64,000 nt of DNA from a virus. Both the position numbers and the translations under genes were made by a program. Every line of letters starts with the position of its first letter. The stretch's first letter is position 1. The DNA is taken from IMG/VR virus record IMGVR_UViG_3300015203_000008. One strand, written 5' to 3'. This document shows, one piece after another, positions 8,037 to 60,926 of this stretch. The notes beneath the pieces are model-generated. The model made no database searches. It saw nothing but the letters and a program-made list of their open reading frames with translations, and was not told the origin of the DNA.

Positions 8037-8212
8037 TGAACAAACGTAAACCCGCAAGAGCCAAACCCGACAAGATCATCGGATGCCGTTTCGACTCAGA
8101 GCAATCCGCTAAGTTGAATCGCATCGCAGACGCACACGGCGTTTCCGTGTCTGTTGTATTACGCTGGGCCGTCAAGCAATTCAAAGACGTGACTCTTCCA
8201 GGTTCCAAATGA
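8036..8212 (+). CDS. CopG/RHH-like regulator (58 aa, absent from the ORF track)
   Basis: Hand translation MNKRKPARAKPDKIIGCRFDSEQSAKLNRIADAHGVSVSVVLRWAVKQF...; ATGA overlap with the helicase-MTase gene. Confidence 0.75.
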   Translation: MNKRKPARAKPDKIIGCRFDSEQSAKLNRIADAHGVSVSVVLRWAVKQFKDVTLPGSK

Positions 8213-11200
8213 GCGCCACGAAGCCTGTATCAGACAACCACCTCATCGACATGCTGCCAGTGCATCTGCCATGTGATCCGCGCTCCCCACGAGCGGAGTA
8301 CGATTCTTTGCTCAAATCGAAAGCCGTCATCGCGGTAGACCACGGATACGATGGCCCGGTCAAGATCAACAATGCGTTGACCGGGCGCTTCGGCTTCCAA
8401 GGCGATGTCGCCCGATGGGGAATCACAGGCGGCAACCGGGCCTACTTCCTATCCTTCGGAATGGGCAAGACAGTCATTCAGATTCAGACCCTTCTCTCGA
8501 TTCTGAAGGCGTTCCCCGGCGGCGACGCCTTGATCGTTTGCCCGCTCGGTGTGCGTGGCGAGTTCGTTCACGATGCCCTGAAGTTCTTCAAGTTGAAATT
8601 GGAGTACTTGCGGACAAACGCAGAATACGACGCTGCCTTGAAAGATCGCCCTAGCGTTGAATCGAAGCCGGGGCGAATTTACCTGACGAACTATGAGCGC
8701 GTGCGCGACGGTGACATCGATCCTAACCGGTTTGTGGCAGTGTCGCTAGACGAGGCGGCCGTGTTGAGATCCTTCGGCTCCAAGACCTACCAAACGTTCT
8801 TGACCTTGTTCGACAAGGTGCGCTTCAAGTTCGTCGCAACAGCCACCCCGAGTCCCAATAGATTCAAGGAGCTTATCCACTACGCTGCGTTCTTGGGCGT
8901 AATGGACAGCGGACAGGCCTTGACGCGCTTCTTCAAACGCGATTCGTCCCAAGCTGGAAACCTGACGATTCACCCGCACAAGGTCCGCGAGTTCCGGCTG
9001 TGGCTCGCAACCTGGGCTGTGTTCGTTCAGAAGCCGAGCGACATGTGCGACTCCCGCGGCGTCCCTTACTCCGATGAGGGCTACGACTTGCCGCCAGCGC
9101 GGATAACGAAACACCGACTGCCGGCGGATCACGCCACGGCCGGGTTTGATTCATGGGGCCAAGGGAAGCTCATCCGCGATGCGGCCACGTCGCTCCAAGA
9201 TGCGTCGAAGGAAAAGCGCGATTCCATCGGCGTGCGCGTTGCGCGCATGGTCGAGATCGTAAAGGGCTATCAGCAACCCGATGGGAGCTATCCGCAGTTC
9301 ATCGTCTGGTGTGAATTGAACGATGAGCAAGATGCTGTCGAACGGGCCCTGAAGGGTCTAGGAATCACGGTCTGTACCTTGCGCGGCGCCGATCGCGACG
9401 AAACGGATTACATGGAATCCGAGCTTCAACAGTGGAAAGACGGGAACCGCACGGCCTTTGTTAGCAAGCTCTCGATGTACGGCGCGGGCGTCAATTTCCA
9501 GCAGTGCCACATTTCTATCAACCTTGGACTGAATCACAAGTTCTATCAGTTCATCCAGGGAGTGATGCGCGTGCAACGCTTCGGCCAGCAGCACGAGGTA
9601 GACCTGCACCTCGTCTACACCGAAGCCGAAGACGGGATCTACGAAGATCTGATGGAGAAGTGGGAGCAACACAAAGAACTGCACTGCGAGATGGCTGCAA
9701 TCATCAAGGAGTATGGCTTGAGCAAGATCAAAATAGGAGCGGAAATGCAACGGTCAATCGGCGTCACTCGACAAGAGCACAAGGGCCAGTTGTTCACCTG
9801 CGTCAATAACGACTGCGTCGATGAAATGGACCGGCTGGCCGAAAACTCTGTCGGCTTGGCCGTCTCGAGTTGGCCTTTCTCGGATCACTACGAGTACACC
9901 GAGTCCTATGAGGACTTCGGCCACAACGACGGCGACCGCGGGTTCTTCGCGCAGATGGATCACCTGACACCCAAGGTTATCCGGGCTCTGCAGCCCGGGC
10001 GCATGTACTGCGTTCACGCGAAAGACCGGATCGTCTACGGATCCGTCTCCGGCGATGGCATGTACACAGTCAACCCTTTCAGCGATAAATGCGTTGCGCA
10101 CTGCATCAAGCACGGCCTGAGATTTTGCGGACGCATCACGGTCGTTACCGACGTCGTGCGCGAGAACGGGCAAACCTACCGTCTCGGCTGGTCTGAGAAC
10201 GCCAAGGACGGAACGAAGATGGGCGTGGGCAGTTCTGAATACGTGCTCCTATTCCGCAAGCTGCCATCCGACAAGGCGAACAGCTACGCCGATGTCCCGG
10301 TGGTCAAGTCGAAGGAAGACTACACCCGCGCGCGCTGGCAGTTTGATGCTCATGCCTTTTGGCGCAGCCGTGGCGATCGCTTCCTAACGCCGGAAGAAGT
10401 GGCGGGGATGCCGATGGATCAGGTACGGTCGTTCTGGAGGTCGTACACGGATCGCAAGGTCTACAATTTCGAGGAGCACGTTGAAGTGGCCAAGGCAATG
10501 GATAATCTTGGAATTTTGCCATCGTCGTTCATGGCTCTCGATGTCGTCAACCCCGGAGCGGGGAACGTTTGGGACGACATCACGCGGATGCGAACGCTGA
10601 ACACCGAGCAGGGCCGGAAGGGTTGGGAGCAGCACGTGTGCTTGGCGGTCGGATCGCTCGTGTTGACGAAAGAACGCGGATACGTTTCAATCCAAGATGT
10701 GCTCGTGGGCGAACATGCGCTTACGCACATGGGACGCTGGCGCGCCGTTCTGGCGGTGCAGAATACCGGCATTCGACCGGCAATTACAGTAAGGGCGCAA
10801 GGCGTTCCTGGACTGACATTGACGCCGGATCATAAACTCTGGTTGAGACAATCGAAGCGCGTTCGAGAGCGCGAAGGCGCGGAATACGCTGAACCTGAAT
10901 GGGTGGAGGCGAAAGACTCGCTCGTCGGTGGTTACGTCAATTTCAAACTGCCACCTGTTGACGAAGGGACGCCTCATAGCTTTCTAGACTGGTGGATTAT
11001 CGGCCGATGGCTGGCAGATGGGCACTGGGAAACTAGGGGCGGCATTTCGATTTCTTGCGGTCGTCACGAAACCGATACGCTGATCGAATCGCTACAGGGC
11101 CACGCAGGCGCGGTGAGGGACACCGGGACGTCACACCAGATAACTGTGACCAATTCCAAGACAATCCGGGACGTACTCCGCCATTGCGGGCATGGTGCAT

Positions 11201-11892
11201 CCGGCAAGCACCTGCCACCTGAAGCGTTCACGATGCCGACAGATGCCGCGCGCGCGCTTCTGACCGGCTACCTTTCCGGCGATGGTCATTTCGACCCGGA
11301 ACGGAATCGGTATTCGGCAAGCTCTGTAAGTAAGACTCTTGCTTTAGGCATAGCATTCTTAGCACAACGGGCATTCGGCGCGATCGCTAGTGTTTATGCA
11401 GGCAGGCCGGAGCGTGATTCGGAAATCGAAGGGCGTTCGGTCAAATGCAAGCAGGACTGGATTATTAGCTTCGATGTCGCGGCAGGAGATCGTTACAAGC
11501 AACCGTTTGTGCTCGCCGATGGCGCGTGGAAAAAGGTGCGCGGCCTAGAAGGCGCGGGCGAAGTGGAAACGTGGAATCTTCGAGTAGATGAAGACGAGAG
11601 CTTCACCGCTGAGGGGTGCATCGTCAAGAACTGCCCCCTGCAACTCGACATCGTAGAGCGCCTGATTGAGCGCTACTCGAATCCAGGAGACTTGGTCTTG
11701 GATATGTTCGGCGGGTTGGGCACCGTGGCTTACTGCGCGGTCTTGGCGGGACGCCGGGGATATTCGATTGAGTTGAGCGAGGGGTATTGGAAGGACAGCA
11801 TCTCCTACTGCCGAGCAGCGGAGCAAAAGGTTTCGATGCCGTCACTGTTCGATTCCCTACCAGAAGAACTTCTGGATTCGCGGGATCACTGA
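8209..11892 (+). CDS. SNF2-like helicase fused to a beta-class adenine/N4C DNA methyltransferase, interrupted by an intein
   Basis: FGMGKT, LDEAA, TATPSPN, GVNFQ, RVQRFGQ helicase motifs; SSWPF (SPPF-like motif IV) and DMFGGLGT (motif I). Confidence 0.9.
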   Translation: MSATKPVSDNHLIDMLPVHLPCDPRSPRAEYDSLLKSKAVIAVDHGYDGPVKINNALTGRFGFQGDVARWGITGGNRAYFLSFGMGKTVIQIQTLLSILKAFPGGDALIVCPLGVRGEFVHDALKFFKLKLEYLRTNAEYDAALKDRPSVESKPGRIYLTNYERVRDGDIDPNRFVAVSLDEAAVLRSFGSKTYQTFLTLFDKVRFKFVATATPSPNRFKELIHYAAFLGVMDSGQALTRFFKRDSSQAGNLTIHPHKVREFRLWLATWAVFVQKPSDMCDSRGVPYSDEGYDLPPARITKHRLPADHATAGFDSWGQGKLIRDAATSLQDASKEKRDSIGVRVARMVEIVKGYQQPDGSYPQFIVWCELNDEQDAVERALKGLGITVCTLRGADRDETDYMESELQQWKDGNRTAFVSKLSMYGAGVNFQQCHISINLGLNHKFYQFIQGVMRVQRFGQQHEVDLHLVYTEAEDGIYEDLMEKWEQHKELHCEMAAIIKEYGLSKIKIGAEMQRSIGVTRQEHKGQLFTCVNNDCVDEMDRLAENSVGLAVSSWPFSDHYEYTESYEDFGHNDGDRGFFAQMDHLTPKVIRALQPGRMYCVHAKDRIVYGSVSGDGMYTVNPFSDKCVAHCIKHGLRFCGRITVVTDVVRENGQTYRLGWSENAKDGTKMGVGSSEYVLLFRKLPSDKANSYADVPVVKSKEDYTRARWQFDAHAFWRSRGDRFLTPEEVAGMPMDQVRSFWRSYTDRKVYNFEEHVEVAKAMDNLGILPSSFMALDVVNPGAGNVWDDITRMRTLNTEQGRKGWEQHVCLAVGSLVLTKERGYVSIQDVLVGEHALTHMGRWRAVLAVQNTGIRPAITVRAQGVPGLTLTPDHKLWLRQSKRVREREGAEYAEPEWVEAKDSLVGGYVNFKLPPVDEGTPHSFLDWWIIGRWLADGHWETRGGISISCGRHETDTLIESLQGHAGAVRDTGTSHQITVTNSKTIRDVLRHCGHGASGKHLPPEAFTMPTDAARALLTGYLSGDGHFDPERNRYSASSVSKTLALGIAFLAQRAFGAIASVYAGRPERDSEIEGRSVKCKQDWIISFDVAAGDRYKQPFVLADGAWKKVRGLEGAGEVETWNLRVDEDESFTAEGCIVKNCPLQLDIVERLIERYSNPGDLVLDMFGGLGTVAYCAVLAGRRGYSIELSEGYWKDSISYCRAAEQKVSMPSLFDSLPEELLDSRDH
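10639..11631 (+). mobile_element. Intein (331 aa) with a LAGLIDADG-type endonuclease
   Basis: Starts CLAVGSLV, block B LTPDHKL, GRWLADGH and LLTGYLSGDGH, ends FTAEGCIVKN; +1 Cys; excision restores HV-CPLQLD. Confidence 0.9.
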
Positions 11893-49931: not shown

Positions 49932-50029
49932 GCTACACCTCCTCCGGTATTCGGCGGGTCATGCTTACTCAACGCGACTGCAAGCGAGAGCACCAGGGCA
50001 ATCACGAGCAACGCAGCGTCAAACCTCAT
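49928..50029 (-). CDS. Tiny single-TM peptide (33 aa)
   Basis: MRFDAALLVIALVLSLAVALSKH...; ATGA overlap. Confidence 0.45.
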   Translation of the reverse strand: MRFDAALLVIALVLSLAVALSKHDPPNTGGGVA

Positions 50030-50394
50030 CGCGCTTTTCTCTCGCCCGGCTTCAACAGCGGACCTCGCCACGGTTGAGGCTTCGCAACATGCACAGGTGC
50101 CAGCGTAGCTACCGCCTCTGAGTATTTGATCTTCGGAAGACCCGCCATAATCGAACCTAGCCGCAATCCAACAGATGCCCGGTGCGCTTCGATCTTCGCA
50201 ACTGCTGCCGGTTTCGGCTTGCGAGGCCGCAGCAGTTTGATCGCCTTGAACGGCGGGAGAACCACGTCGCCAGGCTTCGCCGCGTTCCCCGGCCGCTTCG
50301 GGCACGCTGTGAAGTGCTTACGCATCTCGCGCGCCGTGAGCATGGCACCGCAGCCCCATCCGCACGGCATCTTTGAACGGATTCGCTTCTTCAC
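50026..50394 (-). CDS. Basic protein with a C2HC zinc finger
   Basis: PCGWGC...MRKHFTACPKRP. Confidence 0.6.
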   Translation of the reverse strand: MKKRIRSKMPCGWGCGAMLTAREMRKHFTACPKRPGNAAKPGDVVLPPFKAIKLLRPRKPKPAAVAKIEAHRASVGLRLGSIMAGLPKIKYSEAVATLAPVHVAKPQPWRGPLLKPGERKAR

Positions 50395-50400
50395 TCAGAT

Positions 50401-50582
50401 ATAGTGACACAATTAACGGCATTTGTGTCACTATCTTTCCCCTGAGTGGTCACACTCGCAAACCACACGCCGATTGACACTTCGCGTCCAGTGGGGTGAC
50501 ATATTTTGTCACCGCTTGTTTTCAGTGAGATGCACGAAACGTCAACTACTTGCGGTTGTTTCAGGATGACAAATAGTGTCAC
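50401..50582. promoter_or_regulatory. Cluster of (G/A)TGACA...TGTCAC palindromic operators
   Basis: 12-bp inverted repeat 50401-50412/50423-50434; GTGACA-N5-TGTCAC at 50496-50512; ATGACA-N5-TGTCAC at 50566-50582. Confidence 0.65.
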
Positions 50583-50631
50583 TGTCGCCCGTTGTTCAAA
50601 TATGCCTCTAGCGTATTCAGCTACTTAGCGT

Positions 50632-50648
50632 TTGGCGCGTGGTTTGCA
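50632..50648 (+). promoter_or_regulatory. sigma54 (-24/-12) promoter
   Basis: TTGGCGCG-TGGT-TTGCA matches TGGCACG-N4-TTGC with exact spacing; ATG at 50661. Confidence 0.6.
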
Positions 50649-50660
50649 ATGTATATAGGC

Positions 50661-50933
50661 ATGGCAAACGTAAGTAAGTCGGTGATGGTTGGCAGCGAAG
50701 CGGATCTCGGCTTGACGCGCTACCTCATCACTAACGGCAAGAACCCTGTAGACGATAAAGCTTCGCGCTACTTTGAGAACACATTCGATAGCGCCATTGC
50801 CGAATGTGTAGCGATGGTTGAAGACCCGATGAGCCGCAAGCGCAAGACATGGAAAGTCTTTGCTGTCGCTACCACTCACGATTGCTGGCAGTTCACCAAG
50901 TGGGAACTGCTCGCTGAAGTCAACCGCAGTTAG
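50661..50933 (+). CDS. Hypothetical protein, first gene of the plus-strand island
   Basis: MANVSKSV...; starts next to the predicted TSS. Confidence 0.6.
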   Translation: MANVSKSVMVGSEADLGLTRYLITNGKNPVDDKASRYFENTFDSAIAECVAMVEDPMSRKRKTWKVFAVATTHDCWQFTKWELLAEVNRS

Positions 50934-50938
50934 CATGT

Positions 50939-50993
50939 TCGCTGGTTATCCGCTCACCCAGCGGATTAAATACGTGGGGACGTAGCAGTACCA
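50939..50993 (+). ncRNA. Structured intergenic motif, copy 1
   Basis: ATCCGC-TCACCCA-GCGGAT, TAAA linker, TACGT-GGGG-ACGTA. Confidence 0.5.
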
Positions 50994-51011
50994 AATAAAA
51001 GGAGAAACAAA

Positions 51012-51266
51012 ATGAAGCGACTCAAAACATTTTGGCGGAATCTGCAAAACAGCATCCAATGCAAGCGCGCTAAGAGCGACTGCTGCGCACGTTGCGGGCG
51101 CTGGCTGCACAACGCCAAAACCAAGCCATCGGGAGATGCAGAAATGCCCCGGATGCACATGCGCGGCGCTTGCCAGCGGATCGAGCGCTATAAGGCCGTG
51201 GCCGCCCAAGAGCGCGCAGAAGTCGAAGGTACCAGGATCTATATGTCTCGGCTGAATGGGGCGTAA
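51012..51266 (+). CDS. Hypothetical protein
   Basis: AAGGAG RBS. Confidence 0.65.
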   Translation: MKRLKTFWRNLQNSIQCKRAKSDCCARCGRWLHNAKTKPSGDAEMPRMHMRGACQRIERYKAVAAQERAEVEGTRIYMSRLNGA

Positions 51267-51291
51267 AGAAGCCATGGAGGAATAAGCACGA

Positions 51292-51343
51292 TCGCTGGTT
51301 CCCCCCACCCAGGGGATTAAATACGTGGGAACGTGGCCAGCGA
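51292..51343 (+). ncRNA. Structured intergenic motif, copy 2
   Basis: TCGCTGG/CCAGCGA closing stem; TCCCC-CCACCCA-GGGGA; TACGT-GGGA-ACGTG. Confidence 0.5.
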
Positions 51344-51366
51344 AACAACCTAGGGAGACAAGGAAC

Positions 51367-51567
51367 ATGAGCCAAGTAATGCAAGCCGGAATCCTCAAGA
51401 ACCGCTCTTATCATCAGGCTGTGAAGATCCTCGACCAAGCCGCAAGCGATGCGGTATCGACGCTGGACGGCGCTACATCGGCGCAAGCGATCAAAGAAGC
51501 TCTCGCAGCTCGCCGGAAGATGTTTCACGCGATCAAGCACCTATCGACCGATGGGAGGATCAACTAG
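51367..51567 (+). CDS. Hypothetical protein
   Basis: AAGGA RBS; MSQVMQAG... Confidence 0.6.
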   Translation: MSQVMQAGILKNRSYHQAVKILDQAASDAVSTLDGATSAQAIKEALAARRKMFHAIKHLSTDGRIN

Positions 51568-51569
51568 CC

Positions 51570-51749
51570 ATGTCTCTAACCCCTCAGTGCCCGAAGTGTG
51601 ACGCCCGGATCCGCGAGACGATCCAACTTGCCGATCGCGACGTGATGTACTGCGCCAAGGGACACCGGACAGAGCAGCTTCGCTTGTTCCCGCCGGCGGC
51701 CCCTGCGCTTGATCTGTTCGCTGCTGTACAAATCAACGGAGGTAACTGA
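51570..51749 (+). CDS. Small zinc-ribbon protein (59 aa)
   Basis: Hand translation MSLTPQCPKC...YCAKGH; GGAGG RBS. Confidence 0.55.
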   Translation: MSLTPQCPKCDARIRETIQLADRDVMYCAKGHRTEQLRLFPPAAPALDLFAAVQINGGN

Positions 51750-51750
51750 A

Positions 51751-51921
51751 ATGAGCGAGCCAAACTACTGCGGTCGATGTGGTGGCGATCCTTGCCAGTG
51801 CTGCAAGACCTGCGGAGAATCACCATACGGGTTTTGCGAGTGCGGGGATTATGTCACCGTGCCAGCAACCATCGTGGAAGGCCCCAGGCCAGTCAGCACC
51901 AGAAAGCAGGTACAGCCGTGA
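51751..51921 (+). CDS. Cys-rich miniprotein
   Basis: YCGRCGGDPCQCCKTCGESPYGFCEC; GGAGG RBS. Confidence 0.55.
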   Translation: MSEPNYCGRCGGDPCQCCKTCGESPYGFCECGDYVTVPATIVEGPRPVSTRKQVQP

Positions 51922-52145
51922 CAATTGAACTTGAACTGACCGCAAATCAGGTAGGCGACGCGATAGCTGTAGCGACGATCATAAGCCGCCTTGCGGATAT
52001 CGACTTGAATGAGCGCCTCGAAGAAGACCCCAACCGCGACGGTAGAGCAATCGCTCTCTCGATCCTGCGTTTTCTTGAGAATCGTCTACCAAGTCCAGCT
52101 TATATCGCTGGGATGGTCGAGAGCCGATCAAGGGTTGGGCAATGA
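51918..52145 (+). CDS. Hypothetical protein
   Basis: GTGA-coupled ORF. Confidence 0.55.
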   Translation: MTIELELTANQVGDAIAVATIISRLADIDLNERLEEDPNRDGRAIALSILRFLENRLPSPAYIAGMVESRSRVGQ

Positions 52146-52567
52146 GCCACTACCCCGAAGACGCAACCGCCGAGCGCGACGAACAACTTTACGCCGACTT
52201 CCTCGCCACGTATGGGATTCCTCACGTCTGCTTGACCTGTGGCGAGCGCGAGGTCATTGACCCACGTTCCCGGCACTACCTAGCCCATAGCGTGTTCTGC
52301 GGCCAATGCACGCATGAAATGCTACCCGAAGATGAGATCACCCCGGAACTAGCCGGTAAGCTGCTTTGCAAGCGCGCCGGCATCACAACAGATCACCGGA
52401 TGAGAAACTGGTTCGATCACTCATGGACTGGTCCGCACGTGCTGCACTACGTCAGACCACAGGCACTAGAGGACGCAGTAATAAACGGTGTTTCGGAGAA
52501 TCGCCTTGTTCCCGTGGGCAGTGAATCCGACGCAGGCGGCGCCAGGGGCGACGGCATCCTGCGTTGA
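52142..52567 (+). CDS. Zinc-finger hypothetical protein; 3' end overlaps the convergent fibre gene
   Basis: CLTC...CGQC; ATGA-coupled. Confidence 0.55.
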   Translation: MSHYPEDATAERDEQLYADFLATYGIPHVCLTCGEREVIDPRSRHYLAHSVFCGQCTHEMLPEDEITPELAGKLLCKRAGITTDHRMRNWFDHSWTGPHVLHYVRPQALEDAVINGVSENRLVPVGSESDAGGARGDGILR

Positions 52568-58826: not shown

Positions 58827-58955
58827 TTAAACAGCACGCTTTGCAACCTTCCTACGGTTTCGGCGTTGCCGTTTCTTCGCGGCCTTACTCTTGGGTTTCG
58901 GACGATACGCCAGGATGTGATCAACGAAGCGGTCTAACTCGTGCGGAGTTTTCAT
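58827..58955 (-). CDS. Basic 42 aa peptide following the IS1595 transposase
   Basis: GGAGG RBS; MKTPHELDRFVDHILAYRPKPKSKAAKKRQRRNRRKVAKRAV. Confidence 0.6.
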   Translation of the reverse strand: MKTPHELDRFVDHILAYRPKPKSKAAKKRQRRNRRKVAKRAV

Positions 58956-59464
58956 ACAACCTCCGCTGTGAGCTGCTTGTAGGTGATCCGCTTGCCGACA
59001 ACGGCGTCAACGAACGAGTCGAGCCGCTCGAAGGTGTGCCGCACAACGTTCGCTCCACAGAGCTTCCCGAAGTCATCGTGATTACCACAAGCCTCACGCA
59101 AGCGGGAAAGCATGAACCACGCCGTCTTCTGAGTCACGCCAATCTCTTTGGCGAGTTGCATCGAACTGATACCCTTGCTCGCCGTAACGAGCAGATACAT
59201 CGCGTAGACCCACTTGTGCAAGGGTATGTGCGAGCGCTCAAAAATCGTATTAGTGCGAATCGTGAAGTTGTGGCCGACGCTGACTTCGGGGCAGGCGTTG
59301 CAGCGATAGTATCCGCCGGTGCGCTTGGTGATCCGCTCCCCAGACTTGCACGCCGGGCACACAGGGCCGGATGGCCAGAGCCGATCTTCGAGATACTCGC
59401 GAGCGGTCCCCTCGTCGGGGAACATCTCGAAAAGTTGGAACGTGCTGATAGTGGACGCGCTCAT
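58952..59464 (-). pseudogene. IS1595 transposase with an in-frame deletion of the DDE domain
   Basis: WPSGPVCPAC...YRCNAC, FTIRTNTIFERSHIPLHKW, KGISSMQLAKEIGVTQKTAWFM..RLREAC joined directly to the C-tail GKRITYKQL. Confidence 0.85.
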
Positions 59465-59773: not shown

Positions 59774-60644
59774 CGTAGATCCTCAACTCCCCCGGGGGGA
59801 TCGGCGCCTCCGGCGTGAACCCCATGATCTTCATGGTTCCCTTTCTACGCCGTTCCTTTTGAACATTGCCCGTCTTTCATCTAAGGTCAACTTGGCGCAG
59901 CGCTCTCGGTTCTTCTGGTGAATCTTGGCCTGCGTCTCTGGTTTGATGCCGCGCCGCTTCGCCGCTTCACTCATTCGACGGCGCGTCTCAGCGGTTAGTA
60001 TCCGTGGCGGCCTAACCGGATTGGCGCTCCAGTACTTCTTGAGGGCATCTGAAATCTTCTTCTTGGAAGACTCGATATCTGGATTCTCGTACCAGCGCTT
60101 GCGTATCGACTTTGCACGAATCTCTGGCGTGTTCATGTGATCGGCGACCGGCTTGAGTATCGTCCCGGCTTCTCTGGCATCCTCAAGACCCTTGCGCATA
60201 TTCCGCCATGCCTTGTCTTGGGCTGCCTGATATGCAGGATCGAGCTTCGACTGCAACCTCCGGCGATGAGACTTCAGGCCACCAGCGGCGACTTGAATAT
60301 TGATCGCCAATCGGCCTTTGGCGAGGTTCTTTTTCAAGACCTCGCGGTCCACCACTGCCTTCATCACTGCCGATAATCGCTCGCTGCTTTCCTCCGCGAG
60401 AAGTGATTGTGTGACCCGAAGCTCAAAGGATTCGCGGTAATCATCGGCGGTCATATCGTGGATTCGGCGAATGTGCGATCCAAGCCCCTTGATCCACCTG
60501 CCGCAGATGTGGCACTGGTTTTTGAAGCCATCGGTTTCTAGGACACCCAAAGACCCGAACATTCTATTTCACCTTGGCGCAACTCAGCTTCCCGTTCCCC
60601 TCATTGAAAACCAGCATGTTCGCGTAGATCCTCAACTCCCCCGG
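59774..60644. repeat. 22-bp direct repeat flanking the MucR-NUMOD3 gene
   Basis: cgtagatcctcaactcccccgg at 59774-59795 and 60623-60644. Confidence 0.85.
59831..60562 (-). CDS. MucR/Ros-type zinc finger fused to NUMOD3-like basic repeats
   Basis: CHICGRWIKGLGSHIRRIHDMTADDYRESF; SKKKISDALK and ETRRRMSEAAK. Confidence 0.7.
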   Translation of the reverse strand: MFGSLGVLETDGFKNQCHICGRWIKGLGSHIRRIHDMTADDYRESFELRVTQSLLAEESSERLSAVMKAVVDREVLKKNLAKGRLAINIQVAAGGLKSHRRRLQSKLDPAYQAAQDKAWRNMRKGLEDAREAGTILKPVADHMNTPEIRAKSIRKRWYENPDIESSKKKISDALKKYWSANPVRPPRILTAETRRRMSEAAKRRGIKPETQAKIHQKNRERCAKLTLDERRAMFKRNGVEREP

Positions 60645-60926
60645 CGGTATCGGGTCTCCCGGCGGAGTGAAACCCTTGGCGCACGCCTTGAACGTAATTG
60701 CTTTGCCCGGCTCGCCGCCCCAAACAATGTTCCCGGCTGCGTTCGCTCGCCCGACTTCAGCGGAAAGATTCGGAACAATCGTCATCGTCTCGCCTGGTGC
60801 CAAGCAGGTTGTATCGTCTGGTCGGCAGGTATTCGCGACGCCAGACCTCCGCATCTCAATCAAGATCCAGACGACGGATAGCGCGACCACCACCCAGATG
60901 AAAGCCGCTTCTTTGCGTCCCATCAT
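60564..60926 (-). CDS. TM-anchored Cys-containing protein
   Basis: AAFIWVVVALSVVWILI TM segment; four Cys. Confidence 0.65.
   Translation of the reverse strand: MMGRKEAAFIWVVVALSVVWILIEMRRSGVANTCRPDDTTCLAPGETMTIVPNLSAEVGRANAAGNIVWGGEPGKAITFKACAKGFTPPGDPIPPGELRIYANMLVFNEGNGKLSCAKVK

Follow-up and report, generated by a model that had tools for sequence, protein, structure and literature searches.

An uncatalogued, clade-restricted structured RNA candidate repeated between small genes of a tailed-phage operon

Clustered hammerhead ribozymes flank variable single genes in prophages, where they cleave as predicted (Perreault et al. 2011, PMC3088659). Unrelated ribozyme classes replace one another at such sites (PMC6765202), and many of the motifs taken from these sites failed to cleave when tested (PMC6765202, PMC10085705). 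The same was reported for many RAGATH and HRIMA motifs (PMC5737381, PMC10085705), and the traits used for selecting ribozyme candidates are invariant unpaired residues, small size and pseudoknot potential (PMC10085705). The element described here carries invariant unpaired residues, is about 55-60 nt long and has pseudoknot potential. It is like the clustered prophage ribozymes (PMC3088659) in that a repeated small RNA is placed between a stop codon and the next RBS in a variable operon of small genes, but it has neither a hammerhead core nor a match to a ribozyme family, and cleavage is only a candidate function. It is also like the RAGATH and HRIMA motifs (PMC5737381, PMC10085705) in being a small structured RNA, as yet uncharacterised, among genes of the kind that accompany ribozymes, although no Rfam RAGATH family matches it, and the likeness to HRIMA motifs, which are mostly derived from metatranscriptomes (PMC10085705), is by description only. 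A further comparison is with the PeSL cassettes of T4-like phages (PMC4122927), which are likewise short intergenic repeats at junctions of unrelated genes in a variable region; unlike those cassettes, the element has no internal promoter or terminator, and an RNA fold is suggested by its covariation together with its invariant loops. The element is a candidate structured RNA, uncatalogued and restricted to one clade, whose arrangement is of a known kind; it lies outside every family tested, and its likeness to a ribozyme spacer is one of position only.

Two copies in an operon of small orphan genes

The window, that is, the whole stretch of 64,000 nucleotides that was analysed, covers nearly all of a 64,617-bp contig of a tailed phage, and its tailed-phage genes include DnaB and a methylase as well as matches to terminase, portal and capsid. 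Small orphan ORFs make up the short + strand operon that contains the element (50661-52567, Table 1), and because a sigma54-type site stands at the head of this operon, the + strand is likely to be the transcribed one. Comparison of the window with itself by BLAST aligned 50932-50986 with 51285-51337 (84% over 55 nt, E 2.5e-8), the top-scoring intergenic repeat of the whole window and more than chance would produce. The 13-nt invariant core, searched for with a tolerance of 2 mismatches, was found in the window at 50966 and 51317 only, exact in both places, and an unfiltered covariance-model search returned no further copy there.

All of the sequence features that the first-pass annotation had listed for the two copies were present at the positions given. 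The repeat it had described was also found, but the homology begins 7 nt further 5′ than the starts it had given, at the upstream stop codon (50932 and 51285), and the unit common to all copies ends at 50986 and 51337. Every copy, including a third one described below, begins at a stop codon, ends 9-13 nt before an RBS and is flanked by unrelated genes, with an A-rich leader and the RBS standing after it. The distance is 13 nt from the end of copy 1 to AGGAG (51000), and 9 nt from copy 2 with its outer stem to GGGAG (51353). An AGGA(G)-type RBS had been annotated after both copies; this was correct for copy 1, whereas the likely RBS after copy 2 is GGGAG, since AAGGAA at 51360 lies only 1 nt from the ATG.

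Table 1. Positions of the element, its parts and the neighbouring features in the window.
Feature	Position	Strand	Remarks
sigma54-type -24/-12 site	50633..50648	+	operon head; present in related phage too
90-aa ORF, upstream of copy 1	50661..50933	+	homolog in L186 followed by type II hammerhead
Copy 1, conserved unit	50932..50986	+	covariance model 83.9 bits; starts within stop of ORF 50661-50933
Copy 1 hairpin 1	50949..50965	+	5-bp stem, 7-nt loop ending CACCCA; pair G50952-C50962
Copy 1 linker TTAAATA	50966..50972	+	invariant, A-rich
Copy 1 hairpin 2	50971..50984	+	alternative: pseudoknot strand 50975-50978 plus 3′ arm of long-range helix with 50933-50940
RBS AGGAG of 84-aa ORF	51000..51004	+	predicted open, unpaired probability 0.74-0.96
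84-aa orphan ORF between copies 1 and 2	51012..51266	+	
Copy 2 including 7-bp outer stem	51285..51343	+	covariance model 90.9 bits; starts at mini-ORF stop
Copy 2 hairpin 1	51300..51316	+	swapped pair C51303-G51313
Copy 2 hairpin 2	51322..51335	+	closing pair U-G, not U-A
RBS GGGAG of 66-aa ORF (start 51367)	51353..51357	+	mostly open (predicted)
66-aa orphan ORF, downstream of copy 2	51367..51567	+	

Several other features were observed in the window. A three-codon mini-ORF (M-E-E-stop, 51274-51285) lies between ORF 51012-51266 and copy 2, and its stop codon is the start of the element, as is the case with the stop codons at the other two copies. The divergent control region at 50401-50648 contains, besides the sigma54-type site, several GTGACA/TGTCAC palindromes (50404-50431, 50496-50512 and about 50567-50582); a related phage has kept the site and similar palindromes, and an HNH gene is inserted in its control region. 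Divergent from the operon is a small zinc-finger ORF (50026-50394, - strand), whose finger is 85% identical in the related phage, and similar fingers occur beside integrases in other elements. A second direct repeat (59774-59826 / 60623-60678, 80% over 56 nt) flanks a 243-aa ORF (59831-60562) and is perhaps a gene end that was duplicated by an insertion. The 170-aa ORF at 58952-59464 (- strand) bears a zinc ribbon and resembles an IS1595-family transposase fragment, while a 1227-aa protein (8209-11892) has helicase-like, LAGLIDADG and DNA methylase domains and possibly contains an intein.

No intrinsic terminator and no U-tract were found in or after the element, nor was any RBS-sequestering (anti-SD) helix conserved across the copies, and these two results argue against a riboswitch, which was rejected as having no expression platform (no terminator match, RBS mostly unpaired in the window copies). 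A sigma70 promoter or terminator was also rejected, as none is present in the element. The earlier suggestion of an undescribed cis-regulatory RNA was retained as to a structured and uncatalogued RNA, while a riboswitch-like regulator became less likely. Another kind of non-cutting signal, either a nut/put-like antitermination site or a switch between folds that adjusts the following RBS, appears unlikely. In its favour are the location in the first part of an operon headed by a sigma54-type site, alternative helices of similar energy, a distance of 9-13 nt to the RBS, and a possible loose resemblance of the 5′ octamer of the element to lambda boxA. However, such a signal is at odds with the missing terminator, with an RBS that is predicted to be open in both window copies and with downstream genes that are unrelated to each other.

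A third copy and its conservation

A metagenome scan found a third copy at locus L033, the sole genuine homolog obtained there (L033, L162 and L170-L172 are one phage and were counted once). The operon that carries this copy is the same one, with the same sigma54-type site ahead of the copy and a homolog of the 141-aa ORF after it, and its immediate neighbours are unrelated to those in the window. The contig of this related phage belongs to a Bryobacteraceae genome bin, from which we infer an acidobacterial host. The L033 copy and copy 2 are identical at 58 of 62 positions, while the orthologous coding DNA of the two phages shares 66% of its bases and their four-fold sites are 47% identical (439/927). 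The excess of 58/62 over the level at four-fold sites suggests that selection is likely to act on the element, with the caveat that this site may have been exchanged recently. Copy 2 and the L033 copy differ at four positions, of which two make up the compensatory pair of hairpin 1 and the other two are in loops, a pattern matched by 0.75% of random placements; the corresponding value for copies 1 and 2 was 1.2%.

The same comparison bears on two further readings. It is highly unlikely that the element is a neutral remnant, meaning a functionless junction sequence that was recently exchanged or duplicated: substitutions between the copies respect hairpins 1 and 2 in a pattern with a chance of about 1%, and the borders of homology are sharp and coincide with helix ends, with unrelated sequence on the flanks. 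Two observations nevertheless point to a remnant, namely the loss of the outer stem in copy 1 and the mosaicism of phages, which could make this site younger than the synonymous divergence across the genomes implies. Rather unlikely, too, is an element acting at the level of DNA, such as a PeSL-like site for protein binding or recombination where cassettes meet, in which the hairpins are incidental. This would agree with the location of all three copies between unrelated genes, with the bracketing of one ORF by the window copies as direct repeats, and with a 16-nt core that is invariant and includes two palindromic ACGT words. On the other hand, the compensatory swap and the G-U-tolerant changes indicate a single-stranded RNA, the promoter and terminator that define PeSL cassettes are missing, and a simple crossover between the two window copies would not yield the one copy in L033.

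Further searches did not extend the family. Pattern scans of IMG/VR yielded no copy among the matches listed; those inspected had neither the hairpin nor the rest of the motif, and the BLAST table contained no full-length match. Protein-led scans of IMG/VR gave nothing new. Metagenome and GTDB scans returned only the one related phage, and no new homolog came from INPHARED and PLSDB or from the phylum, order and family, each represented by 151-401 genomes that were searched by pattern, BLAST, covariance model and protein profile. The best weak match (L307), which is antisense within a protein gene, was rejected, as were the recurring host matches that were inspected, which have no hairpins and look like coding sequence. 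The element was absent from the loci with homologs of neighbouring genes (L164-L169, L173, L174, L185, L186, L308, L309 and L313). An antisense 150-aa ORF was also rejected, since only the motif stretch is shared with the related phage. The element is known from three copies in two phages only.

Hairpins and competing folds

Hairpin 1 pairs in all copies, and it is the only one among all helices with a compensatory change, which confirmed the swap reported for the first stem (G50952-C50962 versus C51303-G51313). This single change, seen among three sequences only, is not above the shuffle control (179/500 and 154/500). H-type pseudoknots typically have an A-rich linker following stem 1, and the TTAAATA linker is a candidate for the minor-groove strand of such a pseudoknot. 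The pairing of loop 1 with TGGG is invariant in all three copies, without covariation. Since the T of TGGG also forms the final pair of hairpin 2, the kissing interaction is limited to 3 bp as long as this hairpin is intact, and the partner strand of loop 1 competes with hairpin 2.

The fold proposed at first (fold B) combines hairpin 2 with the 7-bp outer stem, and has energies of -21.9 kcal/mol in copy 2, -21.6 kcal/mol in L033 and -4.5 kcal/mol in copy 1. Its closing stem is perfect in copy 2 (51292-51298/51337-51343) and identical in L033, but in copy 1 five of the seven pairs are broken in register, leaving a shifted stem of at most 4 bp. In fold A, 50933-50940 is paired with 50978-50986, hairpin 2 is open, and loop 1 forms a pseudoknot with the downstream TGG(G). 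Fold A pairs 95.8% of the cells versus 91.7% for fold B, and its ends coincide with the homology borders; it contains an A-A mismatch in two copies, with lower stability in those two. According to this modelling, a pseudoknot closed by the long-range helix appears to fit the three copies at least as well. The model of a three-way junction with a kissing loop is not established, because the kissing pairs show no covariation, the closing stem is broken in copy 1 and the rival fold pairs more. The element contains several alternative helices of similar energy, the three copies have no single agreed minimum-energy fold, and the thermodynamic support is modest (z -0.8 to -2.6).

Known ribozymes and a possible role in transcript processing

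The covariance-model search of the window against Rfam 15, which had been proposed as a check, matched no family at the gathering threshold (0 matches). The best local matches below threshold had E values of 0.65 (mostly over the RBS) and 4, and the weak matches to freshwater-2 and the L31 leader were treated as noise. The claim of an undescribed structured RNA was borne out by this result, by a third copy far above neutral conservation and by substitutions that respect hairpins 1 and 2, and we consider it quite probable that the element is a selected RNA structure.

No known catalytic core was found in the element. The pistol ribozyme (Rfam RF02679; PMC4604425) needs a P2 between its linker and its pseudoknot strand. 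Like pistol, the element has a 5-bp hairpin (P1) followed by an A-rich linker, UUAAAUA, with a loop that can pair downstream, and a phage context; unlike pistol, its loop-complementary strand comes 2 nt after the linker, which leaves no room for P2, and the pairing is of 3-4 bp. No helix corresponding to P2 is common to all copies, and neither P3 nor the two-nucleotide GU junction is present, in normal or permuted order, among the helices compatible with all copies. Pistol was thus rejected in both orders on P2, P3, the junction and the lack of a model match, in agreement with the doubt about its topology that the first-pass annotation had expressed. Hammerheads (types I-III as well as non-circular forms) were rejected because CUGAnGA occurs on neither strand and GAAA only outside the shared core. 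Twister (PMC5408937) has a conserved A at its U-A cleavage site in J1-2 and a double pseudoknot, T1 and T2, with stems P1, P2 and P4. Fold A echoes T1, as its hairpin loop ending in CCCA pairs with GGG just 5′ of the closing helix and is preceded by a G. Twister was rejected, however, since the element has no U-A cleavage dinucleotide (C-G-C follows the closing helix), no T2, no real P2 and no model match. HDV-like ribozymes have a 7-bp P1, a 3-bp P3 directly before the 3′ strand of P1, and a J4/2 with the catalytic C and adenines. These were rejected as well, as the candidate P1 is 4 bp and the hairpin 5 bp with 7 nt intervening, and there is neither an A-rich J4/2 nor an Rfam match.

A clue to function comes from the relatives of the 90-aa ORF upstream of copy 1, which has two homologs, in L186 and L185. 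The homolog in L186 is 42-45% identical, and at its stop codon begins a type II hammerhead whose core is complete; the gene after that (DUF932) is followed by a type I hammerhead. The scores of the two, 20.7 and 31.8 bits, are below the Rfam threshold, and their cores are complete when read by hand. They occupy L186:7788-7850 (type II) and L186:8698-8757 (type I), each just after a stop codon, and in both cases a repeated short hairpin is next, before the following RBS. No element was found after the homolog in L185, so that the place of copy 1 is taken by a ribozyme in only one of the two homologs. In L164, the shared downstream genes are present without the element, and this gene order indicates that the front part of the operon is exchangeable. 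The region L164:5189-10309 shares the 59-, 56- and 141-aa ORFs and has ArdC-like and AAA genes upstream.

From these comparisons of sequence and position, we tentatively favour a compact cis-acting RNA that may cut the polycistronic small-gene transcript into separate messages, most likely by self-cleavage. The operon would be transcribed on the + strand from the sigma54-type site; the loop of hairpin 1 would pair with the downstream GGG, as a pseudoknot or a kiss, with the A-rich linker docking against stem 1; the outer helix would close the RNA domain; and cleavage would release each downstream gene with a short leader and a stability of its own. Self-cleavage is favoured by the conservation, the substitution pattern, the invariant unpaired residues and the hammerhead in the same slot of L186, and by the absence of a terminator, promoter or conserved RBS pairing that would suggest another job. 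It is weakened by the small set of three sequences from two phages, whose one compensatory change is within the shuffle control, by the lack of a known catalytic core, by the lack of a copy in IMG/VR, given that ribozyme classes are usually widespread, by the absence of the element from L185 and L164, by the inactivity of many motifs from such sites, and by minimum-energy folds that differ between the copies.

Ranking close behind self-cleavage is a non-catalytic structured RNA, which is a possibility of its own: a target of an RNase or RNA-binding protein of host or phage, or a stabilising 5′ or 3′ knot that sets cistron-specific mRNA levels. The same evidence of conservation and position applies to it, no catalytic consensus is present, and the invariant loops fit protein contact just as the restricted distribution fits a clade-specific partner. 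Nevertheless, no candidate partner gene was found near the element, a long stem such as RNase III targets have is missing from it, and it occupies the hammerhead slot of a relative. A CRISPR-repeat mimic (an RNA anti-CRISPR, Racr) or a Cas6 processing site is very improbable. Over its first 35-37 nt, which comprise hairpin 1 and the A-rich tail, the element has a layout similar to that of type I-E/III repeats. Solitary CRISPR repeat units occur in phages (PMC10651486). However, the element has no Rfam CRISPR-repeat match and its conservation runs about 20 nt past the repeat length. No array with this or a looser pattern was found in 401 Acidobacteriota genomes or in 121 family genomes, and a GTDB scan gave none either; the mimic was rejected as no near-identical repeat array occurs in the genomes searched.

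Within the favoured reading of self-cleavage, the element may represent a new class of small self-cleaving ribozyme of about 55 nt, a pseudoknot with an A-rich linker that replaces hammerheads in phages of Acidobacteriota-like hosts to cut the early operon transcript; we regard this more specific proposal as speculative. Few small self-cleaving classes are known, and pistol, hatchet and twister-sister came from this gene context. If the element does not cleave, it would be another clade-specific structured RNA, of modest interest. If it is self-cleaving, a catalytic fold would be added to those known, along with an operon carrying two copies for studying the still unexplained cutting by phages of their own transcripts.
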